This document shows, one piece after another, positions 1,157 through 15,433 of a stretch of DNA of 64,000 nt. The DNA comes from Candidatus Aminicenantales bacterium (lineage in GTDB: Bacteria; Acidobacteriota; Aminicenantia; Aminicenantales; Aminicenantaceae), in NCBI GenBank assembly GCA_046760305.1, contig JBHIDX010000005.1:12150-76149 (forward strand), given 5' to 3'. How positions within the stretch are numbered: position 1 is the stretch's first letter; each line of letters opens with the position of its first letter. The translations under genes were made by a program, and so were the position numbers. Below the pieces are notes generated by a model. The model saw nothing but the letters and a program-made list of their open reading frames with translations. It was not told the origin of the DNA and made no database searches.

Positions 1157-2710
1157 TCAATCGTTGAGGACTGAGGTCCACAGGTCTTCTCTTATGTAAA
1201 GAACGAGGAGTGTTTCTGGCCTGAGTCCGTAGTATTCAGGCTGATATCTTTTTCCAAGGACAAGATTCAGTTTTTCCGTAAAAGCGGTAGAGGAGATGAT
1301 GAGAGGTACGCCTCGCAGTTCTCCGGCCTCATTCACATCCTGCCAGTATCCCACCCGGCTGAATCCCCTCAGGTACCAGGGAAGAGGCCAGGCTTCATCA
1401 GGTGTGGTTATTATTTTTATCAGCATCCTTTTGCCCTCTGGGTGGTGAAGGGCGACATCATTGATTCTCCTTACCAGGTTCAGAAAATCACGGCTTGTCT
1501 GCGCATAGACATAGGGGTTGCGGGGATCGGATTCATATTTTAAGTTGGCGCGGTAACTCTGAAGGCCAAGGTGAAAAACACCCACACAGAGAGCGGAAAT
1601 AACAACGGTCTGAAAAAGGAGACTTTTTGCCGCTCTCAGAATAAAAGAAACTCCGCAGCCGGCGAGAAGGATGACCCCGAGATAGAAAGGAAGCATATTC
1701 CAGGGAGTTTTGTAAGGAATCAGAGAAAAAGAAACTGTTGTGAAGAGCGTGTAGAAGAAAAGAAACCTGGAGAGTGGGTGGCTGCTGTTTTCTTTACGAG
1801 GTCCAGTCGAGAAAGCAGCCACACATCCAGCAAGAGCCATGCCCAGGATAAGGGCTTCGCTCCACACAGGGCCTGAGCCGTATCGGGAGAGGCCGAGCAT
1901 TTTCAGGTAATAGTACCAGGGATGAGCATGAATTCCAGCCGCTGTCGTTTTCCTAAAATAGGAGAAAAATGCAAGAAAAGAATCCACGAAACCGCCCGGG
2001 TTCCGGAAAAATGATGAGTAAAAAAGAAAGGAGATAGAAAGAGCCACGGTCAAAAATACCGAGAGATGGAGAAAGGATGATTTCAGAGAAATTTTCCCCA
2101 GCGCCTCTTCTCGTGCGGAGGTAAGCCGGGTGAAAACAAGTGAGGCAATAAAGGCGGTGAAGATAATAACGCTCGTTTCTTTAGTGGCATACATCATCCC
2201 GAGGAAAAAGCCGGTGGCGGCTGCCCAACCCAGACTCCTGCTTCGGGCATAACGCCAGCCGCTGGCGATGGCGCCCAGGGCAAAGAAAAAAAGAAGCATC
2301 TCCTGGATGTAGAACCTGCTGTAAAAAACCAGAGCAGGTGAGAGGGCAGCGAAAAGTGCGGAGAAGAAAATCTCTTCTGAATTAAATCCTCCTTTAAAAA
2401 GAAGGAGGAGTAAGATTGCGCCTGTACCGAAGAAGCCTGTTACCAGACGCAGGGTTTTCTCGTTTAAAGCAGCAAATGAACTACCTGAGCTCAGCCAGGC
2501 AAAGGGAATGGTGAGGTAGTAGAGGGTAGGGCCATGGTGTTCATGCTTATCATAGCGGTATTCGCCTTTTTCCAGAAGGTTACCGAATTTGACAGCCTGG
2601 TTAGCTTCGTCGTGATGCATGGGCCGCAGGTCAAGCTTTACCAGCCTGAAAATCAGTGCGGCGCAGAGAACGAGGAGAAAAAAAAGGTAAAAAGTTGTTT
2701 TTTTCTTCAT
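1157..2710 (-). CDS. Polytopic membrane glycosyltransferase, family 39 / ArnT-like (phospholipid-carrier-dependent)
   Basis: About 12 predicted TM helices. The N-terminal loop with R..HHDEANQA..G..L and the YYLT segment is typical of GT39/PMT_2-type enzymes. ATGA start/stop overlap with the upstream discoidin gene. Confidence 0.65.
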   Translation of the reverse strand: MKKKTTFYLFFLLVLCAALIFRLVKLDLRPMHHDEANQAVKFGNLLEKGEYRYDKHEHHGPTLYYLTIPFAWLSSGSSFAALNEKTLRLVTGFFGTGAILLLLLFKGGFNSEEIFFSALFAALSPALVFYSRFYIQEMLLFFFALGAIASGWRYARSRSLGWAAATGFFLGMMYATKETSVIIFTAFIASLVFTRLTSAREEALGKISLKSSFLHLSVFLTVALSISFLFYSSFFRNPGGFVDSFLAFFSYFRKTTAAGIHAHPWYYYLKMLGLSRYGSGPVWSEALILGMALAGCVAAFSTGPRKENSSHPLSRFLFFYTLFTTVSFSLIPYKTPWNMLPFYLGVILLAGCGVSFILRAAKSLLFQTVVISALCVGVFHLGLQSYRANLKYESDPRNPYVYAQTSRDFLNLVRRINDVALHHPEGKRMLIKIITTPDEAWPLPWYLRGFSRVGYWQDVNEAGELRGVPLIISSTAFTEKLNLVLGKRYQPEYYGLRPETLLVLYIREDLWTSVLND

Positions 2711-3393
2711 CTGGCCGCTAAGCCGTAAACCTCCACTTCCACATAGTGGTTCATATCATTTGAAGTGTTTCCCCTGCTGTAGAGCCGCACATATCTTGCC
2801 TTCACTCCCCGGGCGTCGATGAGACGGCCCTCGTATGTTTCTATATATTCTTTGTCCTTTCCGATACCAAGGCCGGCAGAGTTGTCGTGGTCGTTGTTGA
2901 AGAGGGTTGTTACAGCGGTGATAAAGTCCGGATCATCAGAGACCTGGACAATTACATCCCGGTAGACACGGGCCTGGCTGTGGTAGTGCCAGACGAGAAT
3001 GACATGGAGGTTGAAAGATTGCCCGAGATCAATCTGCACCCACTGCACGCCCGGGCCGAGCTCGACGTAATATCCTTCTTCGCCCGATTTTTCCCCATCT
3101 GTCACGTATTCAAGCTCGCCGATAACGGGTTCGGTGTCGCTGGCTGTCACCCTTTTTCCCAGCGAAAGAAGCTCTGTGCCCTGGGGAACAAAGAAAGGCC
3201 CGCGGGGTTTTCCGGTTATTTTTTCAAGGTTCGGGCTTCGGATATTCCTCGGAGTGCCGACAAACATCGGCTTGGGAAGTTCCAGCTTGAGTTCTACTTT
3301 TTTCTTTTCTTCCTGGAGGCTTATTCCTCCTCCTAGAGAAAAAGAGATAAAGAAGACCACCGAAATGATAATAAACAGCATCTTTTTTCTCAT
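2707..3393 (-). CDS. Secreted discoidin (F5/8 type C) domain protein
   Basis: Signal peptide followed by a galactose-binding-like domain. The WVQIDLG...YVRLY...VEVEVYG pattern is characteristic of F5/8-C domains. Confidence 0.6.
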   Translation of the reverse strand: MRKKMLFIIISVVFFISFSLGGGISLQEEKKKVELKLELPKPMFVGTPRNIRSPNLEKITGKPRGPFFVPQGTELLSLGKRVTASDTEPVIGELEYVTDGEKSGEEGYYVELGPGVQWVQIDLGQSFNLHVILVWHYHSQARVYRDVIVQVSDDPDFITAVTTLFNNDHDNSAGLGIGKDKEYIETYEGRLIDARGVKARYVRLYSRGNTSNDMNHYVEVEVYGLAAR

Positions 3394-3403
3394 CCCTCAC
3401 TCC

Positions 3404-4315
3404 TTATTCAAAAACCTCAAACCTTTCAGGGTCGATGATAACCATGGCCCATACCTCTGGATGCTCACAGCAGAAAGCCCTAACCTCTTCGGTACTCATG
3501 GCCATGAAGGCTGTGCTCAGGGCGTCAGAGACTGCGGCCGAAGGGTGTGAGGCCCAGGCAGCAAGATGGCCTGAGGCTGTTTCTCCTTTTCTGGGATCGA
3601 AAATATGGCTTCCCTTGACCTCAGTACCTGAACCGCTCAGGGCCCTGTCCTTGAGCAGAAATTCTTTCTTCATCTTTTTAATTTTCCATTTCCCGCCCAC
3701 TCCTACCATCCATCCCTCTCTCTCAGAAGAATTATGGGCTGGAGAGCCTAGAGCAAGGGCTGTGCTCGTTCCTGCGTGGAGAAGAGCCCGCTCGAGGCCC
3801 CAGTCAGAAACTATTTCCGCTGCTCTATCGAGGGCAAACCCTTTTCCGATTCCGCCGAGGTCAATACAAGCTCCCTGGCCTTCTTCTTTTTTAAAACGAG
3901 GTGAGTACTTCAATCTGAATCCCCTCCAGGTGCGGCTGAGTTCTATTGACTGCAGACTACCAGCCTTATCAACGGGGAGGGCTTTATCTTTTTCCTCTTT
4001 GTATGTTAACAGAGAGGCGAAGGAGATATCAAAAGCTCCCCTGGTTTCAGACCAGATACTGAGTGCTGTTTTTAAACATTCGTATGTTTCGACTCCAATC
4101 ATCAGACTCTGTCCGGGTTTGAGGAGGTTTATCTGGCCTATTTCACTGCAGGGGTCAAACCTGTTGAAGAGTCTCTCGAGTCGGTCAACCTCAGCAAAGA
4201 CGGCCTGTGAAACCTGGCGTGCGTACTCCTCGTCACCGCCTGGGGTCAGGAGCTCAAATGTTGTTGCCATGGAAAAGTGGGAAAAGCGGAGAACTCTGAC
4301 CTCTTTTTTTCTCAT
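3404..4315 (-). CDS. apbE: FAD:protein FMN transferase (ApbE family)
   Basis: ApbE hallmarks MATTFEL, IDLGGIGKGFALD and SGSGTEVKGSHIFDPRKG. Length about 300 aa. Confidence 0.85.
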   Translation of the reverse strand: MRKKEVRVLRFSHFSMATTFELLTPGGDEEYARQVSQAVFAEVDRLERLFNRFDPCSEIGQINLLKPGQSLMIGVETYECLKTALSIWSETRGAFDISFASLLTYKEEKDKALPVDKAGSLQSIELSRTWRGFRLKYSPRFKKEEGQGACIDLGGIGKGFALDRAAEIVSDWGLERALLHAGTSTALALGSPAHNSSEREGWMVGVGGKWKIKKMKKEFLLKDRALSGSGTEVKGSHIFDPRKGETASGHLAAWASHPSAAVSDALSTAFMAMSTEEVRAFCCEHPEVWAMVIIDPERFEVFE

Positions 4316-4959
4316 CCGTGGTTTTCCTCAAAAAACGACAAATAGAAAAAGGCAATGGCTGAAAGCAAGGCAACAAGACCACTGTACTCGTGGGCTCTGA
4401 AAATATCAATCTCAACACTCAGAGCAAAGAGGGGAAGCATGAGGCTTAAGGCGGTTAGGATCTGGGTCAGTCCACACAGAGTAAAAATCCAGAAGGCTGC
4501 ACACAGCCTCAGGCCTGAGGTGCTGGTTTTATCGTCAGGAGACTTTTCATCGAACCTGTAGAAGCGGGCCCTGAGCACGACCACTGCCCCAAGGGAGAGA
4601 GCAAAAAGGCTGCCGAAAAAAACATGCAGCACCAGGAATATGCCTGAGAGCCTCAGACCTCCCACAGCCGGCACCATACCGCTCAGCACCAGGTAGGAGA
4701 AGCTTCCTGCCAGGGTGAAAAAAATCCATCTCTGCTCCCGAGGATAACTGAGCTTGAGCCAGTCTGAGAAGTGCCTCACCGCCTTTTTCCTGCCCTCATT
4801 TTTAAAGAGGTCCGCTGTTGTGCGCCAGAGCCAGGAGGGATAGGTGAGGAGAAAAGACCTTGAATTTCTGACAGCGGAAAATTGTCTTTTTCTGAAACGC
4901 AGGAAGGTGAGGATGAGAAGAAGTCCGAACAAAGAGGCTGCAGTGATAAGGCCGAACAT
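4312..4959 (-). CDS. Polytopic membrane protein with conserved His residues, possibly a b-type haem or quinone-interacting anchor
   Basis: Four to five TM helices with His residues in or near the membrane (LHVFFG, RAHEYSG). ATGA overlap with apbE. Lies immediately downstream of the multihaem cytochrome. Confidence 0.4.
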   Translation of the reverse strand: MFGLITAASLFGLLLILTFLRFRKRQFSAVRNSRSFLLTYPSWLWRTTADLFKNEGRKKAVRHFSDWLKLSYPREQRWIFFTLAGSFSYLVLSGMVPAVGGLRLSGIFLVLHVFFGSLFALSLGAVVVLRARFYRFDEKSPDDKTSTSGLRLCAAFWIFTLCGLTQILTALSLMLPLFALSVEIDIFRAHEYSGLVALLSAIAFFYLSFFEENHG

Positions 4960-4965
4960 GAGGGG

Positions 4966-7296
4966 CTATCTCCTTTTCTCGATGAGTCCTGATAATTTTC
5001 CGATTGACAGTAAGAAGAGGAGGAAAACAACAGTTCCGATCACAGTTGCCGAGATAAAAAGGGCTGTCTTCAGGAGAGGCCTCAGTCTGAAGGAGAGTCC
5101 GAATAATTTCTGGTAAGGTTTGCTGAGGCCCATCAGCGAATGGCCTGAGATCTTAACCGGATTCTGTATTTTAAGCGCTCCCACTGCTCTTACCTTATGA
5201 AAAAAAAACGATGAGTTTGCTGAGTGACAGTCCCTGCAGCCGCTGCTTCCCAGGGACTGCTGGGCTGGCCGCACGTGGTGAGCCAGAGGCCAGACAACAG
5301 GCCCTGCTGCCCTGTGTTTGAGTGAGATGAGATCTCCTTCAGGGCCCAGCCTGAACATCCTCCCTCCGGAGACATAGAAAAAGAAAGAGGAGGGGGAAGA
5401 AGCGCTGTTTTTTTTCTGCCGGGAAAGAGAATCGAGGATGAGTTTTACCTGTTCTTCAGTGAGCGTATATTCTGTGCCCACAGTAGAAACAACTGTCCTC
5501 ACCTGGAAATTTGAGACAAGGGGCATTGTCCCTTCTTTAACCACCCAGACCAACTCCGGGTAATCTTTTGCTTTCCTGGGCGCTGGCTTCTTTTCAAGAT
5601 AGCCATCCTTAATCACGTAGAGCACATCTCGGCACAGCAGGGCAGGAGGGCCAGGGACTTCCTCCATTTTTTCCAGAGCGTCGAGCACGCTGAGGATGAT
5701 TTCCTCCACCCCAGCCTCTGATTCCTCGCTTTTGGGGTCGAACTGAGGGATTAAAGGACTTATTTTTCCTTCTTTCTTTACTCCCCACCAGGTATCAGCT
5801 CTTAAAGGCTGCGGCACAAGAGAAGAGACGTCAAGCCTGCCATCCACATTCGGCTCGTAAGCTTTTCCCCTGGCGACAAAAACCGGGATTCCCTCAAGCT
5901 CAGCGTAGAGGGCAAGAGCAGTGAGGATACGCACCACTTGCTCCTCGGCATAAAGAATATCTCCACCAGCCTGGCGTATGTCTGAGGGTGGGAGGAGCGT
6001 AATTTTTTCCCCATCCGAGAGGCCCCAGAAAGCGGGCCACATTAATCGGTGGGGATGGATTTTACCTGAACTATCTTTTAGATAAACAGGCTCGAAGATG
6101 TAGGGCATTTCGGTCGACCAGCGGGCAATGCCGTAAATACCGAGACGATTAGCACGCGAGGTGCGCACTCTCACTGGACTCTTGGCCGGTCTGAAGCCAG
6201 CGTGGCACACAGTGCAGGATAGCCTCTCGAAATGCACAGCCGGAATTCCCCGATGACGCGGATAGGGTGCACCCAGCCGTCCGGTTTCGGAACGACTCTT
6301 CCTGGCCAAGTTCCTTCCCATGTGACATCCCTGGCAGGTGAATTCAGCCGCATCCTCCCTTCCGTAGCCAGCATATTCTGCCTCATAGCCGCGTATCATG
6401 TTATGACTTATGTCATTTCGGTGGCAGTCTACACATTCCTTTCCAGCGGCTGAATGAACATCTTCTACGGCTGTGAATTTTTTCGACCCTGCTCTTGAGA
6501 CTGAGTGACAGGTAAGGCATCGGCTGTCATCAGGTTCTCCGCTGATGTCAAAGAACACACGATGCTGGCTGTCAAAGTGCCAGGTTTTGTACCTTACATA
6601 GGGAACAACAGCCCATTCTGTATCATCAGGATTTGGCCCGTCGATTATATCCCATGTATCTGGAAGGCGGGAGGCCATGCCTCCTACCTCCCCCAGGCCT
6701 GAAGCAGCCGTTGCTGCCCAGCGGAAATTCTGGCGGAGCACCTGTTTGGCCCATTCACTGTGGCTCTGGATCCTGGAGGCGTTATGGCAGGCCATGCAGT
6801 TTATTTCAAGTTTTCCAGAAACATTCCAGCGGGATTCAGGGCTCACTTCCTCACTCGGCTCACCAACTCCACCGCCTGCCATGTGTCTTCCGAAAAGGAG
6901 AGTGAAATTCCAGGGACTCAGCCCTACATCCTCGGGATTCCATACTCCTGGCCAGTTATGGTAGGAGAGGGGAAGGATGGTTCCTGTTTTTGGCTCAACC
7001 CAGACCCATGGCTCTCCTGGCCGACCGTCCTCAGGAGAGGAAGAAGCATTGAAGTGAAGACCCTGGTTGATAAGCTCATAGTCATGACAGGGGGCACAGG
7101 TAAAGCGGGTTGAATAAGGCAGGGGGTAAGGAAGGGTGGGAACGATGAGCTGGTCAAACTCATCCCTGAGTTGAATGAGGTGAACCGGGGTGGTACGGCT
7201 TCCATCCCAAGCCTTGGTTTTCTGTTGACACAACAATGTGCTCCCATCCACAACAAGGGGAAAGAAAAGGATGAGATAAATAAATTTTTTTTTCAT
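4966..7296 (-). CDS. Multihaem c-type cytochrome (7 CxxCH) with N-terminal signal peptide and C-terminal TM anchor
   Basis: CxxCH motifs CAPCH, CMACH, CLTCH, CVDCH, CQGCH, CTVCH and CRDCH. Cleavable signal peptide. Hydrophobic C-terminal helix. Start overlaps (ATGA) the stop of the upstream Gfo/Idh/MocA gene. Confidence 0.85.
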   Translation of the reverse strand: MKKKFIYLILFFPLVVDGSTLLCQQKTKAWDGSRTTPVHLIQLRDEFDQLIVPTLPYPLPYSTRFTCAPCHDYELINQGLHFNASSSPEDGRPGEPWVWVEPKTGTILPLSYHNWPGVWNPEDVGLSPWNFTLLFGRHMAGGGVGEPSEEVSPESRWNVSGKLEINCMACHNASRIQSHSEWAKQVLRQNFRWAATAASGLGEVGGMASRLPDTWDIIDGPNPDDTEWAVVPYVRYKTWHFDSQHRVFFDISGEPDDSRCLTCHSVSRAGSKKFTAVEDVHSAAGKECVDCHRNDISHNMIRGYEAEYAGYGREDAAEFTCQGCHMGRNLARKSRSETGRLGAPYPRHRGIPAVHFERLSCTVCHAGFRPAKSPVRVRTSRANRLGIYGIARWSTEMPYIFEPVYLKDSSGKIHPHRLMWPAFWGLSDGEKITLLPPSDIRQAGGDILYAEEQVVRILTALALYAELEGIPVFVARGKAYEPNVDGRLDVSSLVPQPLRADTWWGVKKEGKISPLIPQFDPKSEESEAGVEEIILSVLDALEKMEEVPGPPALLCRDVLYVIKDGYLEKKPAPRKAKDYPELVWVVKEGTMPLVSNFQVRTVVSTVGTEYTLTEEQVKLILDSLSRQKKNSASSPSSFFFYVSGGRMFRLGPEGDLISLKHRAAGPVVWPLAHHVRPAQQSLGSSGCRDCHSANSSFFFHKVRAVGALKIQNPVKISGHSLMGLSKPYQKLFGLSFRLRPLLKTALFISATVIGTVVFLLFLLSIGKLSGLIEKRR

Positions 7297-8663
7297 GTTC
7301 GAAAATGCTCTGGCCGGAATTTAAACATGCGTCTGTTTTTAACCACCTCGTTAGCCTTAAGCACAGCTACGGCTGTTTCATACCCCACTTCAGCCGGGCA
7401 GTTCAGCGGTGTGCCGTGGATGATGGCGTTGAAGAAATTTTCAAGATGTGGCTGGTGAGGCGGCTTTGCCAGCTCCACGGGCAGAGGCCATCGTCCCGCC
7501 TCAGCCGTCACTCTCACATCGAGGAAAATGTTCTTTGTCTCCAGTTTCTGAAGAGGAGGTTTTTCGGATTTGAGAAGTCCGAGCCTCACCAGAGAATCCC
7601 ATTCAGGCGCATGTGCTTCCCGCATAGCCCAGTTTCCCCTTTGAGGCACTTCGGAAATGACGAGGGAACCGTTATCTCCCATGAAGGCTTCGTAAAAACC
7701 CCCATGCTTGGTCGTGGTCTGAACCTGGTAGAAGGCACGTACACACCGCTCACCTGTCTCAAACTCGTAGATGGTCATGACATTGTCATACCATTCCCTG
7801 TCCGGGTAGTAATCGCGTCCGCCGCTGGCTATTACTGCCGATGGGTTTTTTCTCATCACCCAGCTGAAGAGGTCTATCTGATGTGAACCGAGGTCAACCA
7901 GGGGACCTCCGCCGTATTTTTTAAACCAGCGCCAGTTTCTGAACTCAACCATGGAGCGGTAGCCGTATTTGGCGAGTTTTTCTGGGCTGATGGTGTATTT
8001 TTTCGGCCAGCCGAGCATGTCGCTCCTGGCTCGGCACCACTGGGCATAGAGGGATGTAATCTGTCCGAGAAGCTTATGTTCATGGATAAGGCGTTCGATG
8101 GCGTGGATGTAGCGGGGATTGCTGCGGCGCTGGTGCCCGATCTGGAGAAGTTTTCCTGTCCTACGAGCTGTCTCGACCATCGACCTCGCCTTTTCGAGGG
8201 AGTTGGACATCTCTTTCTCGCAGTAGACATGGAGCCCTGCTTCAAGACAGGCGTCAGTGTGTTCGGCATGCATCCAATCAGGGGTGGCGACGATGACAGC
8301 ATCGAGGTTCTTTTCGCTGGTAAGCATCTCCCTGTAGTCCTCGTAGACATTCACCTCGTAGCCGTATTTTTTGAGGTACTGACTTGCATACCTCTGGCTG
8401 TATTCCCAGATGTCGCATACAGCTACAATCTGCACCGTGGGGATGCGGAGGCATGAGTCGATTAAAACCCTGCCCTGTACCCCGGCGCCGATGATGGCCA
8501 CTGCCAGCTCGGCTGATTTCTTCTTCTGCGGAGCGCTTCCTCCCGGAGGACGGACAGCCGCCTTTCCAGCCAGGGCAACGCCAAGGCTGGCCGAGGCCGA
8601 GCTTTTGAGAAAATCCCTTCTTGTCAATTTTCTTATCTTACCCTTATTTTTTAAGCTGGACAT
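7293..8663 (-). CDS. Tat-exported Gfo/Idh/MocA family oxidoreductase (glycoside 3-dehydrogenase-like)
   Basis: Twin-arginine signal TRRDFLKSSASASLGVALA. Rossmann motif IGAGVQG. Gfo/Idh/MocA C-terminal domain. Confidence 0.85.
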   Translation of the reverse strand: MSSLKNKGKIRKLTRRDFLKSSASASLGVALAGKAAVRPPGGSAPQKKKSAELAVAIIGAGVQGRVLIDSCLRIPTVQIVAVCDIWEYSQRYASQYLKKYGYEVNVYEDYREMLTSEKNLDAVIVATPDWMHAEHTDACLEAGLHVYCEKEMSNSLEKARSMVETARRTGKLLQIGHQRRSNPRYIHAIERLIHEHKLLGQITSLYAQWCRARSDMLGWPKKYTISPEKLAKYGYRSMVEFRNWRWFKKYGGGPLVDLGSHQIDLFSWVMRKNPSAVIASGGRDYYPDREWYDNVMTIYEFETGERCVRAFYQVQTTTKHGGFYEAFMGDNGSLVISEVPQRGNWAMREAHAPEWDSLVRLGLLKSEKPPLQKLETKNIFLDVRVTAEAGRWPLPVELAKPPHQPHLENFFNAIIHGTPLNCPAEVGYETAVAVLKANEVVKNRRMFKFRPEHFRT

Positions 8664-8687
8664 TTTCCCCTTCTTTATATTTTGAGT

Positions 8688-9677
8688 TTATTTTTTCATT
8701 TCTTTATCGAAGGCAATCTCTGAAGGAGAAAAGTTTATGCTTCTTATGAATTCGAGCGATTCCTGGGCACCGAATTCACGCTCCATTCCGTTGTCTTCCC
8801 ACTCAACTGAGAGAGGGCCTTCGTATCCTATCTCATTCAGGGCCCGGATTATTTCCTCGAAGTTAACGTCACCATGTCCCAGGGAGCGGAAATTCCATCC
8901 CCGCCTTATGTCACCAAAGGGGAGATGGGAGCCGAGAATTCCAGCTTTTCCGTCCAGGTTGAGAGCCACATCCTTCATGTGGGTGTGGTAGATGCGCTCA
9001 GGGAATTCGAGGATGAAGAGATGAGGCTCCATTCCCTGCCAGAGAAGGTGGCTGGGGTCAAAGTTAAGTCCGAGTGTTGGTCTGTGGTCAAAGACCTCGA
9101 AGAGGCGCTTTGTTGTGTAGAGGTCAAAAGCAATTTCAGTCGGATGGACCTCGAGGCCGAATTTTACCCCGCAGCGCTCGAACTCATCAAGAATTGGCGT
9201 CCAGAGCTCGTGAATCTTCCTGAACCCTTCTTCGACCATTTCCTCGGTTGTGGGCGGGAAAGAATACCAGAACTTCCAGATCGGAGAGCCCATGAAACCG
9301 TTGACCACCGAACAGCCCATGTTTCTGGCAGCTCTGGCCGTATGCTTCATCTCCTCGATGGCCCATTCGCGGATCCGGTCGGGTTTACCCTTCACCTCCT
9401 CAGGCACAAACACATCCAGACGCTCGTCATACCTGTCGCCGACACACTGACCGGCAAGATGGGCGCCCAGGGCCCAGCATCTCAGATTGTTTTTTTCGAG
9501 CATCTTCTTTTTTCCCTTTACATAATCCCCGTCTTCAGATGCTTTGCGCACCTCCATGTGGTCTCCCCAGCAGGCGATTTCCAGGCCCTCATAGCCCCAG
9601 CTGCCGGCTTTCTTGCACATCTCAGTAAAAGGCAGATCCGCCCACTGGCCTGTAAATAAGGTCACAGGTCTTGCCAT
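8688..9677 (-). CDS. Sugar phosphate isomerase/epimerase (xylose-isomerase-like TIM barrel)
   Basis: AP-endonuclease-2 / xylose-isomerase-like fold signatures (GYEGLEI, HxKD, EWED). Start set at the internal ATG at 9677, which has aaggagg 7 nt upstream; the longer ORF would overlap the next gene by 46 bp. Confidence 0.8.
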   Translation of the reverse strand: MARPVTLFTGQWADLPFTEMCKKAGSWGYEGLEIACWGDHMEVRKASEDGDYVKGKKKMLEKNNLRCWALGAHLAGQCVGDRYDERLDVFVPEEVKGKPDRIREWAIEEMKHTARAARNMGCSVVNGFMGSPIWKFWYSFPPTTEEMVEEGFRKIHELWTPILDEFERCGVKFGLEVHPTEIAFDLYTTKRLFEVFDHRPTLGLNFDPSHLLWQGMEPHLFILEFPERIYHTHMKDVALNLDGKAGILGSHLPFGDIRRGWNFRSLGHGDVNFEEIIRALNEIGYEGPLSVEWEDNGMEREFGAQESLEFIRSINFSPSEIAFDKEMKK

Positions 9678-9700
9678 GGCTTCCTCCTTGGTATGAATGA

Positions 9701-10873
9701 TTAAAAATCTATCCAAACAGCGCCTTTTTTGGAACTCTCGACGCACTTTTCGATGAACTTCACACCGCGCACTCCCTCCTCGACGTGGGGATAATCCAGC
9801 TCTTCTTCGCTCAGCGATTCGCCTCTAAGCTTTTTGCTCAGAGCCTGACAGAAGGTGGAGTAAATGTTGGCGAAGGCTTCAAAATACCCCTCCGGGTGAC
9901 CGGCAGGGATGCGTGAGAAGCTCTGGGCCTGGGGGTAAAGAGTGTCGCGTCCGCGTGAAATTATTTCAGCAGGCCTTTCCAGGTAACAAATACGGGCATA
10001 ATTGGGATTTTCCTGGCACCATTCGAGCGAACCTCTGGTTCCGTAGATTCTGACTCTGAGTCCGTTGTCGTGGCCGACTGCGATCTGTGAACTCCAGTAA
10101 AGGCCTTTTGCTCCACCTTCATAGTTAACAAGAATTGAAGCGTTGTCATCCAGCACTCTACCCTCGACAAAAGTGTCAAGGCGGGCGCAGAGCGAGCTGA
10201 TCTTCAATCCGCTGAGATAAGAAACCATGTTCTCAATATGACTCCCGATGTCTCCGACACAGTTTGAGATACCCGAGCGGGAAGGGTCTGTTCTCCATTC
10301 AGCCTGCTTCTGACCTGTTTTCTCCAGCGCGGTGCTCAACCATTCCTGGGGATATTCAGCGTTAACGAACCTGATGTTTCCCAGCTCTCCCTTAGCAACC
10401 ATTTCTCTCAAATGCTTGACCAGTGGATAACCTGTGTAGGTGTAAGTGACGCAGAAAAGAAGTCCTTTTTCCCCCGAGAGACGCTCGAGCTCCTCTGCTT
10501 CCTTGCTGCTGGTAGTGAGTGGCTTATCGCATACAACGTGAAAATCATGCTCGAGAGCAAGTCTGGAGATAGAATAGTGTGAATCATTAGGGGTGACGAT
10601 GACCACGAAGTCAATCCCATCCTCCCGTCCTGCTTCTTTGCGGAACATTTCTTCAAAGGAAGAGTAAAGACGCTCCTCGTCCAGTCCAAGGCTTTTCCCG
10701 GTGGCGAGAGTGTTTTCATAATTCCTCGAAAAACAACCGGCAACCAGCTTTGCCTTGCCGTCCATGGCAATTGCCTTGCGGTGCACATCTCCGATGAAGG
10801 CACCCTGGCCGCCGCCGACCATGCCGTAGGTGAGCGTGGTCTTCCCCTTACCGCTTGCACTTGCCTCGATCAT
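9701..10873 (-). CDS. Gfo/Idh/MocA family oxidoreductase (cytoplasmic, no signal peptide)
   Basis: GMVGGGQGAFIG Rossmann motif and family-typical C-terminal domain. No Tat or Sec signal. Confidence 0.85.
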   Translation of the reverse strand: MIEASASGKGKTTLTYGMVGGGQGAFIGDVHRKAIAMDGKAKLVAGCFSRNYENTLATGKSLGLDEERLYSSFEEMFRKEAGREDGIDFVVIVTPNDSHYSISRLALEHDFHVVCDKPLTTSSKEAEELERLSGEKGLLFCVTYTYTGYPLVKHLREMVAKGELGNIRFVNAEYPQEWLSTALEKTGQKQAEWRTDPSRSGISNCVGDIGSHIENMVSYLSGLKISSLCARLDTFVEGRVLDDNASILVNYEGGAKGLYWSSQIAVGHDNGLRVRIYGTRGSLEWCQENPNYARICYLERPAEIISRGRDTLYPQAQSFSRIPAGHPEGYFEAFANIYSTFCQALSKKLRGESLSEEELDYPHVEEGVRGVKFIEKCVESSKKGAVWIDF

Positions 10874-10895
10874 GGACCACCTCCTTTTTATGTTC

Positions 10896-13721
10896 TCATT
10901 TTTTTAACTCTTTTTCTATCTTTTCCACAGCAGCTCTAGCCTCCTCCTCCACTCCTTCCTCTTCAACCAGGGAGCGGGCGAACTCAAGCGCCTCCTGGCA
11001 GGGAAAGATAGGTAGAATGCTGAGCACCAGCTTTTTTTCCTCCATCCGTGCCAATCCCATGGTGTTTTTAAGCTCCCTGACTGCATGTTGTGGCAAGCGG
11101 TAGGGCTCAAGGCCAATCATCCTGATGTAGGCTCTAAGGGCGAGGAACTTGAGGACTTTGTTTTTTAATTTCAGGCTCAACTCGAGCAGGTCTTCTTTTG
11201 GAGTGGTGGTAGGCCAGTCAGCCAGAGCACGTATGGCAGCCTCTCTTTCTTCAGGCGTCCCACTTGACACAGCCCTGCGGAGAGAGGGGAGAGAGCTCTC
11301 ATCTCCAATTCTGCCCAGAACTCTGAGCAGAGCGCAGCGGTCGCTTATGTCCGCTGTTGAATCAAGCGCTTCCACCACTGGCCGTGCGCGGCCAGGCCCT
11401 CCTTTTTGCTTTCCAGCCACAGCAGCAATTGTGTTGGCCATTTCTTCTCGTTCTTTTTCCTGAGTTGAAGCAAGCATTATATCTACCAGATGTGGAAGGT
11501 GGGCAGGAGTGGCAATGTTTTTAAGAGATTTTATGGCCTGAAGCCGGATTTCAGCCTCTGAGAAGCGAGCCCGGGAAAGAAGTAGGCTTATCCCCTCCTT
11601 AATCCGTCGTTCGCCGATGGAGCGGATAAGCTCCTGCCGAACACGTGGGTCAGGCAGTTTAATAAGGTTTAAGAGAATCGCTCTCTCAACTTCTTTCCCG
11701 GGCAGCCAGTCGAGGCTTTCCCGGGCCGCCTTCTTTTCTTCTCCAGAACTCAGCGCAGCGCCACGGGCAAGGAGTTCTACGGTGGAGTAGTCACCGAGAG
11801 TTTTAAGGGCTCTTAAGGCAGCTACCCTCACCTCCTTTTGCTTGCTCTGTGCCGCCTGGACAACGGATGAGAGCACTCCAGGTTTGCGGTAGCCGGAGAG
11901 AACTTCGAGCAGCATGACCTGGCTTGAAGGGGGGAGAGAGGGAAGCAGAGCGCTTACAGCCTCTATATTTTCGAGGTCAAAAAAATCCCTGATGAGGGTT
12001 ATAGCTGGTTGGTGCCATTCGATATTCTTTCCTTCCAGTGCTCTGATTATTATCTCCGAGGCGTTAGCGGCCGAAGATATTTTTCCTCTCATGGCAGCCT
12101 GACGAAGGTTGAGGGGAAGTTTCGAGGATATGAGTGCTTCATACATTCTTGAAGCTTCCTCGCTCTTCCCGGCTTCAAGGCGGTTCTCGGCACATTTAAG
12201 CACAGAAGAAGCAACGACTGCTTTTACTTCGCCTGAGGTTTTGTTCATATTTTTGAGGAGAAATTCTGCTGCCTGCGCAGTTCCCACCTGGCCCATCGCT
12301 CTGGCAGCAGCAGCGGCTGTCTCAGGCTGAGCGCCGCGGAGCAGCTTTGAAAGCTGAGGCAGCGAATTCTCAGACTTTCTGTTTCCCAGAGAAGAGATGA
12401 TACCCAGCCTCACTTTCCCTCTGCTTTTTGAAAGCGCCTTTATGAGTGCCTTGGCTGCATCCTGACCGGGAATTTTTTCTAGAGCATACCTTGCAATGTC
12501 AGACGTTTGGAGATGAAGCAGCATTTTCTCCAGCCAAGGAACAGAGAGCGAGGTGCCGATTTCTCTTAACTGCCGCGAGGCTGCCATTTTTGCTGCCAGG
12601 GTAGCATCTGACGCAAGAAAATGGGCAAGGCGTGTCTCACATTCTGCTCTGGATTGAGGTGAATTGCGGTGAGCTCTCACATAGTCCCTGAGCCGGGAGA
12701 GTATTTCTTCGTCCTGACCGTATTCGTAGCTGGCAAGCTCTTTTAGTATTTCCTCCAGCCTCTCAGGCCTGAAATTCTTCCATCGCCTGACATCATCAGG
12801 AGTGCCCGATTCGCGGTAGAGAGCTGGAAAATCTCCTGGTACTTTCTGGGTTACGCTGCCCGTGGCTGCCCATTCTGCACCGCGCTGGAAAGTGACGATA
12901 AAGCCCACGCATTCCATCGATGGGGGATGTTTTTCTCCCATGGCATGGCCAAGGACTGTATGGAAGATTCTCCCCTTACCATACCTGACCGTGAAAAGCA
13001 CTGGTTCATGCCTCCCTGTTCCCAGCTGAGCAGGGTCGCTGTAGGCTGTGGCCAGGACATGAACCTCTTCAGCCGGCCCGCGCAGGAGACTGTAGAGTTC
13101 GTCTCTGGCATGCATCCATCTCTCAGGCAGTCCCCTGGTGATAGGATGAGAGGAGTCACGGTTGACGACCACAAAAGCGTGCTGGTAGCCGTGGTAGCCG
13201 GCAATCCCGGGACTCTTATCCCTGACAATTCTCCCCTTTTCCCAGTAGAGATAGGGTCCGGTAGATTCATCGCGGTTTCCCCATCCCCCTAGCCCTATGA
13301 TTCTGTTGTATTCCTTCCACTGGGGGAAAGAATTGTCAGCCGCGTGGTAGACGACAACACCTCCACCCTGTCTGACATAGCGAACAAATGCCTCCTGGGT
13401 AGAAGAAGACCAGGCATCTCCGTTGTAATCGAGGACAACTACCTGGTAGGAGTCAAACTCGGGCCTGAAAAGGGACATGTCCTTTCCCCTGGGAGGGCTG
13501 GCCGCCACCTCCACCTCAAACATACCCGTCTCCTCTAATATCTTTTTAAGGATGGAGCTGCTTGTCTTCCAGTCGTGATTGTTCTGTCCCGTGACAATCA
13601 GTGCCTTAAGAGAAGAGGCTGAAAGTGGTGAAGAAAAGGATGCCCAAAAGAGAAGGGCCAGGATAATGGGGGTGAGAATGAATTTTGTTTTTTTTGCTTT
13701 TTTTATGCCCATTTTATTCAC
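10896..13721 (-). CDS. Secreted ThuA-like domain protein fused to a long HEAT/PBS-lyase repeat region
   Basis: Sec signal. N-terminal ThuA (trehalose-utilisation, GATase1-like) pattern ALIVTG..H.......VVVLDYNGD......GGGVVVYHAADNSF. C-terminal 600 aa of HEAT-like repeats (ARYALEKIPG, RVRQELIRSIG). No CxxCH. Confidence 0.75.
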   Translation of the reverse strand: MNKMGIKKAKKTKFILTPIILALLFWASFSSPLSASSLKALIVTGQNNHDWKTSSSILKKILEETGMFEVEVAASPPRGKDMSLFRPEFDSYQVVVLDYNGDAWSSSTQEAFVRYVRQGGGVVVYHAADNSFPQWKEYNRIIGLGGWGNRDESTGPYLYWEKGRIVRDKSPGIAGYHGYQHAFVVVNRDSSHPITRGLPERWMHARDELYSLLRGPAEEVHVLATAYSDPAQLGTGRHEPVLFTVRYGKGRIFHTVLGHAMGEKHPPSMECVGFIVTFQRGAEWAATGSVTQKVPGDFPALYRESGTPDDVRRWKNFRPERLEEILKELASYEYGQDEEILSRLRDYVRAHRNSPQSRAECETRLAHFLASDATLAAKMAASRQLREIGTSLSVPWLEKMLLHLQTSDIARYALEKIPGQDAAKALIKALSKSRGKVRLGIISSLGNRKSENSLPQLSKLLRGAQPETAAAAARAMGQVGTAQAAEFLLKNMNKTSGEVKAVVASSVLKCAENRLEAGKSEEASRMYEALISSKLPLNLRQAAMRGKISSAANASEIIIRALEGKNIEWHQPAITLIRDFFDLENIEAVSALLPSLPPSSQVMLLEVLSGYRKPGVLSSVVQAAQSKQKEVRVAALRALKTLGDYSTVELLARGAALSSGEEKKAARESLDWLPGKEVERAILLNLIKLPDPRVRQELIRSIGERRIKEGISLLLSRARFSEAEIRLQAIKSLKNIATPAHLPHLVDIMLASTQEKEREEMANTIAAVAGKQKGGPGRARPVVEALDSTADISDRCALLRVLGRIGDESSLPSLRRAVSSGTPEEREAAIRALADWPTTTPKEDLLELSLKLKNKVLKFLALRAYIRMIGLEPYRLPQHAVRELKNTMGLARMEEKKLVLSILPIFPCQEALEFARSLVEEEGVEEEARAAVEKIEKELKK

Positions 13722-13739
13722 CTTTTGACGCTCGTTTTC

Positions 13740-15044
13740 TCAGAGGCCGAGCTGCCAGGGACTCCTGTAGGAGCGTCCTAGCAGGCGCGCTGCCTCCGCA
13801 TCGCCGATAATTTCCTCCTTTTCCGGATTAAAACGAATCTTGCGCCCCAGTTCCATGGCTATCCCACCCAGATGACCGACACTTGCTGAGCGGTGGGCGA
13901 CTTCGATCGGAGTTATCGTCTGCCTCCTGCTTTTCACGCAGTCGAGAAAATTCTGGTAGTGGTCCCTGCTTCTGTAGAGACGAATCTCATTCGGTCCGAT
14001 TCGTTCATTGAGAATCTCCTGAGGATGAGCCTCAAGTCCTCCTCGGTTAACCCAGATCCACCCGTATTCTCCTATCCATTTTGTGCCAGGTCGAATCTCT
14101 TCGTGTCCGCCCGCAATATCCATCGGCGTGCCGTCTGCGTACCTGGCTTTAAGGTAGTAACGGGTGGGACTGTTCCACACGCCCCGCCTCGGGAATTCGC
14201 CCCAGCCCTCGATCTCAACAGGTCCGGTGAGGTCAAAACCCAGACCCCAGTGAGCAATGTCGACATGATGGCCGACCCAGTCCATGAGCTGGCCGCCGCC
14301 AAAATCCATGACCCAGCGCCAGTTCCTGTGCACCTTTGCCGGACAGTAAGGCGAATAGGGAGCAGGTCCCACCCAGAAATCATAATCGAGTTCTGAGGGA
14401 GGAGGCCCTATTTTCTCCTGCCCTTTTGTCCCGGCAAAGTCATAGTGACCTGATGGAAGTCCAACCTCGACTTTGAGAATCTTCCCCATGCGGCCGTTGC
14501 GGACGAGCTCGCAGGCGTGATGGAAGTTTTCCACTGAGCGCTGCCAGCTTCCTGTCTGCCAGATGCGGCTGTAGCGCTTTACTGCCTCACACATTGCTCG
14601 ACCCTCGAGGAGGCTGTGGGAGAGAGGCTTTTCGCCGTAAATATCAAATCCTGCGCGGGCACACTCGATAGCAGGAATGGCATGCCAGTGGTCTGGCAGA
14701 GCGATGGAGACAGCATCTATGTCAGTTCGCTGGCAGAGCTCCCTGAAATCCTTGTAGGTGGCACAGTCTCTGTTGCCGTACTTCTGGTTTACGATATCCC
14801 GGGCTTGGCGCAGGTGGTTTTCGTCCACGTCACACACTGCTACCCATTGAACCTCCTTTTTTTCCAGGAAGGCTTTCATGTTGGGAATGCCCATCATGCC
14901 AAAGCCGATGCCGGCCATGACGATGCGGTTGGAAGGAGGAACAGCCTTTCCCTTCCCCAGTACCGGAGAGGGAATGATGGCAGGAGCGGCAAAAGTTCCG
15001 GCCGCTGCCAGGGAAAGCTTTTTCAAAAAATCTCTTCTCTTCAT
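13740..15044 (-). CDS. Tat-exported Gfo/Idh/MocA family oxidoreductase
   Basis: Twin-arginine signal KRRDFLKKLSLAAAG. GIGFGMMG Rossmann motif. Gfo/Idh/MocA C-terminal domain. Confidence 0.85.
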   Translation of the reverse strand: MKRRDFLKKLSLAAAGTFAAPAIIPSPVLGKGKAVPPSNRIVMAGIGFGMMGIPNMKAFLEKKEVQWVAVCDVDENHLRQARDIVNQKYGNRDCATYKDFRELCQRTDIDAVSIALPDHWHAIPAIECARAGFDIYGEKPLSHSLLEGRAMCEAVKRYSRIWQTGSWQRSVENFHHACELVRNGRMGKILKVEVGLPSGHYDFAGTKGQEKIGPPPSELDYDFWVGPAPYSPYCPAKVHRNWRWVMDFGGGQLMDWVGHHVDIAHWGLGFDLTGPVEIEGWGEFPRRGVWNSPTRYYLKARYADGTPMDIAGGHEEIRPGTKWIGEYGWIWVNRGGLEAHPQEILNERIGPNEIRLYRSRDHYQNFLDCVKSRRQTITPIEVAHRSASVGHLGGIAMELGRKIRFNPEKEEIIGDAEAARLLGRSYRSPWQLGL

Positions 15045-15433
15045 CCCTTTCTCCTTATTCTTATTCTGCTTATTGTTGTTTGGCTAACACAACTGATTGA
15101 TAATAAATAAAATAAATCTATTTTGAGCCCTTTTTTAGCCCTTAGAATGCATTTTTTGGCCCTGAATCGGTGTTCTAACACATTTCTTCTTATCTAATGC
15201 TAATGTTTTTTCAGCTTAAGTGTCAATTCTCTTTGATGAGCATCCGCAATTCCATGACAATTATGCTCTGAAAAAGCCCCTTCCCCAGTTCATCTTTCGG
15301 TGTTTGTGCAGAGGACGGAGCCTCACCCCGCCCCATGCACTTATTTTATTCATTATAATGGATTTGAGATGTTTGGGTATCTTTGTTATATGCGGATCAG
15401 GCAGCGAAAAGGAACGGAATTATGAGAGAGCTT

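Follow-up and report, generated by a model that had tools for sequence, protein, structure and literature searches.

Do NAD-binding dehydrogenases exported to the periplasm hand their electrons to a dedicated cytochrome chain? This coupling was proposed in a sequence-only reading of ten neighboring genes in the window, a 64-kb stretch of DNA from an uncultured sediment bacterium (Aminicenantes). Open reading frames and Pfam/NCBIfam domain searches confirmed the ten co-directional minus-strand genes, with the coordinates, order, and domain assignments that had been given (Table 1). The junctions from G1 to G10 measured, in gene order, +18, +22, +23, +24, −4, +6, −4, +10, and −4 bp, in agreement with the intergenic gaps of at most 24 bp previously claimed. 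Of the four ATGA overlaps described, three are real: 7296/7293 (G5/G6), 4315/4312 (G7/G8), and 2710/2707 (G9/G10). The fourth, between the G3 Gfo (stop 9701) and the G4 TIM barrel, becomes a 23-bp gap once the start of G4 is corrected to ATG 9677, 6 nt after a strong ribosome-binding site (AAGGAGG); a 24-bp gap separates G4 from G5. The true start of G2 is probably ATG 13712, preceded by an SD-like AAGGTG, in which case the G1-G2 gap would be 27 bp. Upstream of G1 the block ends at an AT-rich spacer of 389 bp with a sigma-70-like site, and downstream at a convergent MBL-fold gene; GC content over 15001-16000 is 0.455. A long plus-strand open reading frame opposite ApbE (3435-4400) was rejected as a gene and regarded as a shadow, because the Pfam ApbE match sits on the minus strand.

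Table 1. Genes of the array and the promoter match upstream of them, with positions in the window.
Feature	Coordinates	Strand	Basis
Sigma-70-like promoter match	15197..15226	-	TTGACA-18-TAGCAT, 10/12 matches; best in region; consensus match alone
G1, Tat-exported Gfo/Idh/MocA, C2-type C-terminal domain (GH109 / BT2158-like)	13740..15044	-	PF01408, PF19051; RRDFLK twin-arginine motif
G2, Sec-exported ThuA domain and long HEAT-repeat region	10896..13721	-	PF06283 103 bits, PF13646; N-terminal hydrophobic signal
G3, cytoplasmic Gfo/Idh/MocA oxidoreductase, without signal peptide	9701..10873	-	PF01408, PF02894, PF22725
G4, cytoplasmic xylose-isomerase-like TIM barrel (AP_endonuc_2)	8688..9677	-	PF01261 E = 1.7e-41
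G5, Tat-exported Gfo/Idh/MocA NAD-dependent dehydrogenase, proposed catalytic subunit	7293..8663	-	PF01408, PF22725
G6, Sec-exported heptaheme c-type cytochrome	4966..7296	-	seven CxxCH; N-terminal signal peptide; C-terminal membrane helix
G7, small polytopic FdnI/HyaC-like cytochrome b, proposed quinone-reactive subunit	4312..4959	-	polytopic; family profile
G8, ApbE-family flavin transferase, without signal peptide	3404..4315	-	PF02424 E = 1e-36
G9, secreted or anchored discoidin-like (F5/8 type C) protein	2707..3393	-	PF00754 30.8 bits
G10, GT-C-fold membrane glycosyltransferase-like protein (PMT_2 / TIGR03663, Agl23-like)	1157..2710	-	TIGR03663 208.7 bits vs cut-off 126; PF13231 28.1

The same neighbors were found again in 171 related loci, which places the arrangement far beyond chance. 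The array is modular and not one fixed operon: its four sub-modules (G1-G2, G3-G4, G5-G6-G7, and G8-G9-G10) are reshuffled, set apart from each other by unrelated genes in certain genomes (L070), or absent. The invariant core is G5-G6-G7. The gene just upstream of the cytochrome is a G5-type Tat-Gfo in 136 of the 137 evaluable loci, which were drawn from Aminicenantes, Sumerlaeota, Kiritimatiellota, Omnitrophota, and further lineages; this adjacency holds in 61 of 61 species-level genomes and in 57 of 58 metagenome loci. It is kept in the lineages beyond Aminicenantes at a cytochrome identity of 37-43%, and overlapping stop and start codons of the two genes were seen repeatedly among the loci. 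In one case, a Phycisphaerae cytochrome (L089), there is no adjoining Gfo, and G9 is present next to the cytochrome. Strict linkage to the cytochrome is a property of one of the two Tat-Gfo genes, G5, and not of G1, which was found in only 10 of 45 genome loci.

The G5 orthologs make up a distinct, well-conserved subfamily, with invariant GxGxxG, D84, EKEM-type, and DLGSHQ features at 43-57% identity across phyla and the TRRDFLK Tat motif kept in 37 of 40 orthologs. NCBIfam and PDB comparisons gave no close match to a characterized enzyme: G5 scores 100 bits against the BT_2158 family, far below equivalog level (cut-off 750), and its similarity to DgpA is confined to the Rossmann domain. GH109 enzymes share the fold and Tat export with Gfo proteins, and 2ixa and 6t2b are among the structure matches.

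Exactly seven CxxCH motifs were counted in G6, as had been reported, and an alpha/beta insert of ~270 aa lies in the interval between heme 6 and heme 7. In 44 of 124 complete representative clusters, the cytochrome continues into a fused domain with four or more transmembrane helices; the other 80 retain the C-terminal anchor, and none is soluble. When the G7 family was aligned with the fused membrane domain using hhalign, the match reached 99.8% (E = 5e-29). Adjacency and these natural fusions indicate that G6 and G7 form one unit. FdnI was the sole PDB match of the G7 family profile, and PF01292 was matched by 26 of 43 family members, with the window copy scoring under the Pfam cut-off.

On balance, and by a narrow measure, we favor the view that the core is a sugar:quinone oxidoreductase resembling formate dehydrogenase-N, in which a Gfo/Idh/MocA protein is the catalytic subunit, and that the flanking modules serve the same pathway. 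Its plan would be that of the three-subunit, periplasm-facing dehydrogenases formate dehydrogenase-N and hydrogenase-1. G5, with tightly bound NAD, would oxidize a hydroxyl group on a sugar or glycoside in the periplasm, most likely yielding a 3-keto-glycoside. The seven hemes of G6, presumably bis-His, would serve as an electron wire held to the membrane by the C-terminal helix, and G7 would hand the electrons on to menaquinone. This flow would be downhill, since the secondary alcohol/ketone couple lies near the potential of NAD and well below that of menaquinone, as judged from established values. A chain from a periplasmic NAD-dehydrogenase to the cytochrome is the best-supported reading because G5 and G6 are syntenic across phyla and G6 is tied to an FdnI-like cytochrome b. 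The sequence-only reading is partly confirmed in its observation, of which one overlap fails, and partly supported in its interpretation: the dehydrogenase-cytochrome link stands, but for G5 and not for G1, and the ten genes are not one fixed unit; the electron hand-off itself is what we infer.

Two pieces of background count against this reading. NADH is an obligate hydride donor, and we know of no precedent for the direct reduction of heme c by bound nicotinamide. Furthermore, Aminicenantes are usually described as fermenters. Our guess for the first is that ApbE may install a covalent flavin, bridging two-electron hydride chemistry to the one-electron hemes. The canonical flavinylation motif D..[ST]GA[ST] was absent from all window ORFs of at least 150 aa, a search among the window ORFs identified no flavin-carrying subunit, and no export signal was found on ApbE. 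No quinone-biosynthesis or terminal-reductase genes were found in the 64-kb window. These negative results also weigh against the reading, as do the lack of a close characterized match for G5, the two invariant His of the G7 family together with the low Pfam score of the window copy, and the Phycisphaerae cytochrome that lacks an adjoining Gfo.

The alternative that survives best, although we consider it unlikely, is that G5 and the cytochrome b/c pair lie side by side but function independently. The Gfo could then be a redox-neutral NAD-dependent glycosidase like GH109 or GH4, the first of which has the same fold and Tat export, or it could work by ping-pong with a second sugar. The latter is the case for GFOR of Zymomonas mobilis, a member of the G5 superfamily (PDB matches 1ofg and 1h6a) that is exported through the Tat pathway with its nicotinamide cofactor tightly bound (cited in PMC8121099), recycles this cofactor by reducing the second sugar and, unlike the array, has no cytochrome partner. 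A GFOR-like ping-pong, with another sugar as acceptor, was also proposed by Liu et al. for the Tat-exported BT2158, whose acceptor is unknown (PMC8121099). The cytochrome pair, in turn, could be a CbcL-like quinol:periplasm electron gate for other partners, or could only rescue NADH-trapped enzyme. Independence agrees with the Phycisphaerae cytochrome and with the lack of a flavin adaptor in the window. However, the adjacency outlasts the reshuffling of every other neighbor, spans phyla, and often involves overlapping codons, and a direct functional or physical link between G5 and G6 is therefore hard to avoid.

The genes flanking the proposed oxidoreductase point to 3-keto-glycoside metabolism. 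G1 scores best in NCBIfam against the BT_2158 glycoside 3-dehydrogenase family, but its 155 bits are far short of the cut-off (750) and do not make it an equivalog; the solved structures closest to it are 8tdf and 8tdh ("dehydrogenase"). G1 is followed by G2 in 29 of 33 loci, and the ThuA domain of G2 matches PDB 4e5v (E = 8e-102). The same pairing of a Gfo/Idh/MocA protein with a ThuA domain is found in ThuAB of rhizobia and Agrobacterium, for 3-keto-disaccharide formation (PMC8121099); in contrast, G1 and G2 both have export signals, and the HEAT-repeat extension of G2 (~600 aa) is absent from ThuA. G1-G2 may be a second periplasmic dehydrogenase pair, ThuB/ThuA-like. G3, which matches 3v5n_A (E = 1e-118), precedes G4 in 73 of 73 loci, and G4 matches the 2-hydroxy-3-keto-glucal hydratase 8ro4_A (E = 2.6e-48) and 2zds_A (E = 1e-109); the two could be a cytoplasmic reductase and a hydratase-like TIM barrel that salvage the keto-sugar. 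Related loci contain DUF1080 3-keto-disaccharide hydrolases, sugar transporters, GH5, GH95, and FGGY kinase. Bacteroides BT2156-BT2160 and the Agrobacterium non-hydrolytic glucoside pathway likewise combine a Tat-exported Gfo-type dehydrogenase, xylose-isomerase-like TIM barrels, and a second Gfo reductase (PMC8121099), and share the DUF1080 hydrolases with the related loci. These pathways have no cytochrome partner, and G1 and G5 fall far under the NCBIfam equivalog cut-offs.

The same complex could also run in reverse, from menaquinol through cytochrome b and the seven hemes to the Gfo, which would reduce a periplasmic keto-sugar or other acceptor. This would provide a fermenter with an electron sink, like thiosulfate reductase PhsABC with its PF01292-type subunit. 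The sequence does not dictate the direction of flow, and PF01292-type cytochromes are generally known to work both ways, FdnI and HyaC reducing quinone and PhsC oxidizing quinol. Moreover, a quinol oxidase role has been described for b/c fusions of the CbcL type (PMC6295460). Reverse flow nevertheless appears quite unlikely, given that menaquinol would have to reduce the ketone/alcohol couple or bound NAD+ uphill by ~100-250 mV (from standard potentials) and that the neighboring genes (hydratase, 3-keto-disaccharide hydrolases, transporters, and glycoside hydrolases) are catabolic.

Among solved structures, G8 is nearest to TM1553 (1vrm), followed by FAD:protein FMN transferases, and its orthologs start about 15 aa ahead of the AMGT motif. 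G9 is the most conserved member of the set (48-58% identity across phyla, 73-86% within Aminicenantes) and is followed by G10 in 73 of 76 loci. G10 has an HHDE motif after TM1; its previous label, GT39, is approximate, and envelope glycosylation is a putative role. A GT-C–ApbE fusion occurs in one case (L083:15625-18255). That the three genes form an unrelated envelope-modification unit, beside the redox genes by position alone in this genome, is very unlikely: some Aminicenantes genomes have 7-9 kb of housekeeping genes (glutamate dehydrogenase and a PPDK-like gene) between G7 and G8-G10, and no flavinylation target was found in the cluster, but the trio accompanies the core in shuffled orders and on different strands in distant lineages (L083, L084, L087, L090, and L092), ApbE lies within 10 kb of the cytochrome in 53 of 55 metagenome loci (G9 in 40 of 48 and G10 in 34 of 42), and the ApbE stop overlaps the cytochrome start in L087. 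G8-G10 may instead travel with the cytochrome as a set of maturation or accessory genes.

With respect to FdnGHI and HyaABC of Escherichia coli, the proposed sugar:quinone oxidoreductase has a Gfo/Idh/MocA NAD enzyme where these have a Mo-bisPGD or NiFe catalytic protein, and seven c-type hemes where they have iron-sulfur clusters; sequence homology is restricted to the b subunit, and G7 has only two invariant His, whereas FdnI has four. The flavoprotein or PQQ sugar dehydrogenase-cytochrome c complexes of acetic acid bacteria take electrons from periplasmic sugar oxidation through c-type hemes to the respiratory chain, as do FAD-dependent glucoside 3-dehydrogenases with a cytochrome c subunit (LacABC type) and as is proposed here. 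Their FAD or PQQ is one-electron competent, whereas the array has an NAD-binding Rossmann fold, and the subunit families are unrelated. LacABC is called cytochrome c-dependent by Liu et al. (PMC8121099). CbcL of Geobacter sulfurreducens (CbcL/MtoC/MtrH group) also has a multiheme c domain and a HydC/FdnI-like b-type membrane domain (PMC6295460), the architecture of the fused clusters described above. CbcL, however, has nine hemes, and its described role is to oxidize quinol for extracellular electron transfer; the present family has seven hemes, is split into two genes in the window, and is tied to a Tat-Gfo dehydrogenase. The likeness is one of architecture.

No published description of such a Gfo-cytochrome system was found in the literature. 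If the proposed direction and partners are correct, this would be a new respiratory enzyme, through which electrons of sugars oxidized outside the cytoplasm would reach the membrane, and it would answer what accepts the electrons from the Tat-exported BT2158.

Pfam and NCBIfam searches upheld the ten consecutive minus-strand ORFs and the labels given to them in the sequence-only reading (G1 to G10 in gene order), and three of the four ATGA overlaps that it had claimed were found at the junctions. The fourth, between the TIM barrel and Gfo genes, is refuted because G4 begins at an ATG, preceded by AAGGAGG, that leaves a 23-bp gap after G3. Upstream of G1, a 389-bp AT-rich spacer contains the best promoter-like site of the region; no Rfam element was detected within positions 1-23200 of the window, this spacer included. 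The end of the array faces a convergent MBL-fold gene with a signal-like N-terminus, one of two Lactamase_B_3/MBL-fold genes in the window, and in the related locus L070 an MBL-fold gene lies upstream of the Gfo-cytochrome pair. An ORF of 321 aa on the plus strand was rejected as a gene: it is a shadow ORF without family support, antisense to ApbE, which is encoded on the opposite strand. GC and AT skew flip sign in 3001-4000. Four genes of the same orientation, with ends that overlap, lie immediately upstream of the array and encode an FAD_binding_4/FAD-oxidase protein with a 4Fe-4S domain, a GATase/GXGXG protein, and two Glu_synthase-domain proteins with ferredoxin-like N-termini. This quartet resembles a split, archaeal-type glutamate-synthase-like complex and is unrelated to the array.

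Coordinates of the array genes and associated features. Gap, base pairs to the next gene of the array (negative, overlap). Adjacency, loci in which the gene adjoins the next one over evaluable loci, where the genome and metagenome sets may overlap and tblastn under-detects G7.
Feature	Position	Strand	Basis	Gap	Adjacency
G1, Tat-Gfo with C2-type domain	15044-13740	-	Pfam/NCBIfam	+18	29/33
G2, ThuA + HEAT	13721-10896	-	Pfam/NCBIfam	+22	
G3, Gfo	10873-9701	-	Pfam/NCBIfam	+23	73/73
G4, xylose-isomerase-like TIM barrel	9677-8688	-	Pfam/NCBIfam	+24	
G5, Tat-Gfo	8663-7293	-	Pfam/NCBIfam	-4	136/137
G6, cytochrome with seven CxxCH	7296-4966	-	Pfam/NCBIfam and motif count	+6	118/148 (limited by low identity and fusions)
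G7, polytopic membrane protein	4959-4312	-	sub-threshold PF01292 match	-4	84/104
G8, ApbE	4315-3404	-	Pfam/NCBIfam	+10	75/92
G9, F5/8 type C protein	3393-2707	-	Pfam/NCBIfam	-4	73/76
G10, PMT_2/TIGR03663 GT-C protein	2710-1157	-	Pfam/NCBIfam		
MBL-fold gene, convergent	417-1154	+			
MBL-fold gene	46767-47420	-			
Shadow ORF	3435-4400	+			
Glutamate-synthase-like quartet	15434-22505	-			
Insertion in L001	L001:2817-6188				
MBL-fold gene of L070	L070:4989-5807				
G9-type region of L083	L083:14090-15617				
G9-type gene of L089	L089:12952-13509				
GT-C-ApbE fusion of L083	L083:15625-18255				

Synteny was explored with tblastn, the ten proteins being mapped onto 80 loci from genomes, 80 from metagenomes, and 10 from distant homologues; the 80 species-level genome loci are nearly all from Aminicenantes or Acidobacteriota MAGs. 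Conservation of the ten genes as a syntenic block, which had been put forward as a check on the array, holds for the G5-G6 pair and fails for a single ten-gene block: the array is modular. G1-G2 was found in only about a quarter of the genome loci, and in some genomes housekeeping genes part G7 from G8-G10, so that the invariant core is G5-G6-G7. In the complete Aminicenantes genome CP070750.1 (L001), a PhdYeFM/ParE toxin-antitoxin pair and a DUF5916 gene stand between the ThuA-HEAT and cytoplasmic Gfo genes, which shows that the array tolerates inserts at module boundaries.

An exhaustive profile-free search for relatives of the cytochrome returned 738 clusters at 50% identity, 335 of them with E <= 1e-30. 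An exact look-up of the window cytochrome gave no entry; a protein identical to it is present in the homology database (P0001), homologues carry the name Candidatus Aminicenantes, and named family members come from Kiritimatiellaeota, Sumerlaeota, Omnitrophota, and several Planctomycetota lineages. Loci of homologues that are only 37-43% identical contain the same gene set in shuffled order. L083 has Gfo, TIM barrel, Gfo-C2, ThuA-HEAT, Gfo, cytochrome, two G9 copies, and a G10-ApbE fusion; L084 has Gfo-C2, HEAT, Gfo, cytochrome, a small membrane protein, and an MFS transporter, then G9, PMT, ApbE, two DUF1080 3-keto-disaccharide hydrolases, and GH5. L086 begins with a TIM barrel fused to a 3-keto-hydrolase, Gfo, cytochrome, and a clear PF01292 protein, followed by a sugar transporter, Tat-Gfo-C2, ThuA-HEAT, TIM barrel, and Gfo; the order in L087 is 3-keto-hydrolase, G9, Gfo, ApbE, cytochrome, small membrane protein, PMT_2, GT2, and FGGY kinase. 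The Sumerlaeota locus runs Gfo, cytochrome, PF01292 protein, and then G9, with PMT_2 nearby, the Kiritimatiellaeota locus Gfo-C2, HEAT, Gfo, cytochrome, and PMT_2, and the Omnitrophota locus Gfo, cytochrome, small membrane protein, and ApbE. In one Phycisphaerae locus, cytochrome and G9 genes occur without an adjacent Gfo gene. Many MAG records with a clearly Aminicenantes-like cytochrome and neighbours (L006, L007, L009, L011, and others) bear the title "uncultured Eubacteriales bacterium," and single records read "Clostridiales" and "Candidatus Desulfaltia"; the taxonomy given in these public records is probably a placeholder or mistaken.

G6 has the seven CxxCH motifs and the N-terminal signal of a multihaem c-type cytochrome. 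The seven motifs and seven further histidines are invariant in 11 cross-phylum sequences, and exactly seven CxxCH occur in 346 of the 372 long family members collected, a pattern that fits seven predicted bis-His electron-transfer haems. Simple hydropathy scans, used for all transmembrane predictions, revealed a C-terminal membrane helix in G6, and a membrane segment follows the last haem in every one of the 124 complete representative clusters. The Aminicenantes protein contains an extra alpha/beta insert (residues ~395-670) that is confidently modelled and for which no fold match was found in the PDB; haems 6 and 7 are similarly far apart in 27/124 clusters.

The membrane partner G7 is more divergent: it matches PF01292 under the gathering cut-off of 30.1 bits, and G7, when used alone as a homology query, retrieved nothing but itself. 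We rebuilt the family from syntenic genes, giving 43 members in which H112, H190, and W157 are invariant and 26 of which match PF01292. Against the whole PDB, the only match of this family profile was FdnI (E = 1.4e-4). In a Foldseek comparison with the PDB, no E-value was significant. The four haem-ligating membrane histidines expected of two b haems in the PF01292 type were not found in G7, where H112 and H190 are the only invariant ones; some distant orthologues (L086) have additional histidines in TM1 and TM2. One b haem is thus the safer expectation for the window G7, judging from these residues. The cytochrome carries a fused C-terminal domain with four or more TM helices in 44/124 clusters, and this domain is homologous to the G7 family (hhalign 99.8%, E = 5e-29). 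These fusions, together with the homology, indicate that G6 and G7 form one b/c-type membrane redox unit.

G1, G3, and G5 belong to the Gfo/Idh/MocA family, with PF01408 scores of 55-78 bits (cut-off, 24) and the C-terminal domains PF19051, PF22725, and PF02894 among them. G3 is cytoplasmic, and twin-arginine motifs are present in G1 (MKRRDFLKK) and G5 (TRRDFLKS). The match of the twin-arginine peptide to Pfam TAT_signal is weak (21.4 bits, cut-off 22.7); a motif of the RRxF[LI] type was found in 37/40 G5 orthologues, and all nine cross-phylum orthologues have it. G5 orthologues of different phyla are 43-57% identical, and all retain GxGxxG and an acidic residue after beta-2, typical of NAD binding. 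The solved structures nearest to G5 are sugar and C-glycoside 3-oxidoreductases (DgpA), inositol dehydrogenases, and GFOR, mostly through Rossmann-domain similarity, and G1 is closest to BT2158-type dehydrogenases. Both proteins score far below the cut-off of 750 bits of the BT_2158 glycoside 3-dehydrogenase equivalog NF058561 (G1, 155; G5, 100), with alignment limited to the N-terminal ~280 residues, and by these scores they are relatives of that family and not members.

The N-terminal ThuA domain of G2 scores 103 bits against PF06283 (cut-off, 33.4) and matches PDB 4e5v with E = 8e-102, and G4 is a putative hydratase that matches the 2-hydroxy-3-keto-glucal hydratase 8ro4_A (E = 2.6e-48, residues 20-325). 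DUF1080 3-keto-disaccharide hydrolases, sugar transporters, and glycoside hydrolases occur as well in related loci. Together these genes make up the vocabulary of 3-keto-glycoside catabolism (PMC8121099; Kastner et al. 2024, as cited in PMC13273386). For the Tat-exported Bacteroides BT2158, the electron acceptor is explicitly described as unknown (PMC8121099).

Known periplasmic sugar dehydrogenases that feed c-type cytochromes use FAD or PQQ, and formate and hydrogen are the known substrates of Tat dehydrogenases that sit on PF01292 cytochromes. The plan of FdnGHI and HyaABC, with a catalytic subunit exported by Tat, a wire anchored by its tail, and a cytochrome b of the PF01292 type, is the layout that signals, transmembrane predictions, adjacency, and fusions give for G5-G6-G7. 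FdnGHI has molybdopterin catalytic and four-cluster ferredoxin subunits, whereas molybdopterin and 4Fe-4S domains are absent from all ten proteins; G5-G6-G7 is an analogue of FdnGHI and not a member. Fusions of b and c type are known from Geobacter, where CbcL joins nine CxxCH motifs to a six-helix HydC/FdnI-like domain (PMC6295460). The window has seven haems and separate genes, and in the fused relatives seven haems are combined with about five helices. The likeness of G6 plus G7 to CbcL is one of architecture. Literature searches on Gfo/Idh/MocA, Tat, and cytochrome c, on ThuAB, and on multihaem proteins of Aminicenantes turned up no description of such a system. What is new is the combination: the catalytic subunit belongs to Gfo/Idh/MocA, the wire is a conserved heptahaem cytochrome, the b subunit is FdnI-like, and an ApbE/discoidin/GT-C set travels with them.

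Comparative genomics and structure prediction suggest how these proteins could work together. Tat-exported, NAD-loaded G5 would oxidise a periplasmic sugar hydroxyl, and the electrons would pass through the seven haems of G6 and the b haem of G7 to menaquinone. Because the layout copies that of FdnGHI and HyaABC, G5-G6-G7 could act as a redox loop, and thermodynamics would be expected to favour flow from sugar to quinone. The bound nicotinamide donates a hydride and haems accept single electrons; this mismatch is the chemical weak point of the step from G5 to G6. A covalent flavin adaptor could convert hydride to one-electron transfer, and ApbE would be the obvious candidate to supply it.

The ApbE domain of G8 is clear (PF02424, 127.4 bits against a cut-off of 25.6), its PDB relatives are FAD:protein FMN transferases, and ApbE is present in 53/55 metagenome loci. 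G8 scores 27.5 bits against the E. coli-type ApbE equivalog NF007774 (cut-off, 498). Against a flavin role stand the lack of a canonical motif in the window, the lack of an ApbE signal peptide, and the topology of a fusion protein in L083. The patterns [ST]G[AS][ST] and [DN]..[ST]G[AS][ST] gave nothing relevant in the ten proteins or in window ORFs of >=150 aa; the sole loose match, "SSGSS" in G10, is non-canonical and was discarded as a flavinylation site. A missing flavoprotein was also sought in the 8-kb inserts that separate G7 and ApbE in some genomes; this idea was dropped because the inserts encode glutamate dehydrogenase and a PPDK-like protein. No signal peptide was found in any ApbE orthologue examined, and by the features that mark extracytosolic flavinylation (a signal peptide or lipobox on ApbE or its target, and a nearby target with FMN-bind, DUF2271, DUF3570, or [ST]GA[ST]) the array does not qualify. 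Cytosolic ApbEs are known (PMC12052999), and the flavinylation survey of Meheust et al. 2021 left out clusters without export signals (PMC8238504), so that it would have missed the present ApbE set.

In the L083 fusion, a full-length G10-type GT-C protein (37% identical) is joined to a full ApbE domain (35% identical), which follows the GT-C C-terminal domain after a linker of ~40 aa with no membrane helix between. By a manual count of 11 helices, this ApbE would lie in the periplasm, a placement that contradicts the missing signal peptides of the ApbE orthologues. To our knowledge, GT-C and ApbE are not families known to cooperate, and the fusion is a Rosetta-stone link between them.

G9 is the most conserved member of the set, with 48-58% identity across phyla, and together with G10 it stays with the cytochrome in every rearrangement. 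Several loci contain G9 in duplicate (G9-type genes occur also in L163 and L166), and it is found beside the cytochrome even without an adjacent Gfo gene. Rather than being a glycosylation factor, G9 may serve the cytochrome as a structural partner. G10 is a GT-C protein (TIGR03663, 208.7 against 126.25 bits; PF13231, 28.1 against 26.1) with an HHDE motif straight after TM1; the earlier label GT39 applies in the strict CAZy sense (PF02366) to some orthologues only, G10 itself being PMT_2/TIGR03663. GT2 enzymes lie beside G10 in L001, L086, and L087. The two proteins may serve in glycosylation or assembly of a periplasmic subunit, or in substrate binding.

Taken as a whole, it is possible, though short of probable, that these genes encode a widespread but undescribed respiratory class of "nicotinoprotein" dehydrogenase, in which a permanently NAD-bound Tat-Gfo enzyme is re-oxidised by a heptahaem cytochrome c and an FdnI-like b subunit in a proton-motive loop from extracytoplasmic sugar or glycoside to menaquinone, with a signal-less ApbE supplying a covalent flavin as adaptor from hydride to single electrons and the GT-C and discoidin proteins required for assembly. 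Tat-exported Gfo/Idh/MocA enzymes are abundant in polysaccharide-degrading bacteria, and the periplasmic re-oxidation of their bound nicotinamide is an open question. If true, this proposal answers how periplasmic Gfo-type glycoside 3-dehydrogenases are recycled: a dedicated cytochrome c/b partner, in at least four or five phyla and >700 clusters (50% identity), provides a concrete and testable route. G5-G6-G7 would define a new input module for anaerobic respiratory chains. The finding poses the chemical puzzle of how a hydride donor feeds haems, and it suggests that signal-less ApbE proteins and the GT-C/discoidin pair have a task not recognised before. Sediment phyla regarded as "fermentative" (Aminicenantes, Sumerlaeota, Omnitrophota, Kiritimatiellota, and Planctomycetota) would conserve energy from sugars before import and, because these lineages dominate anoxic sediments, such a module would alter models of their energy metabolism.
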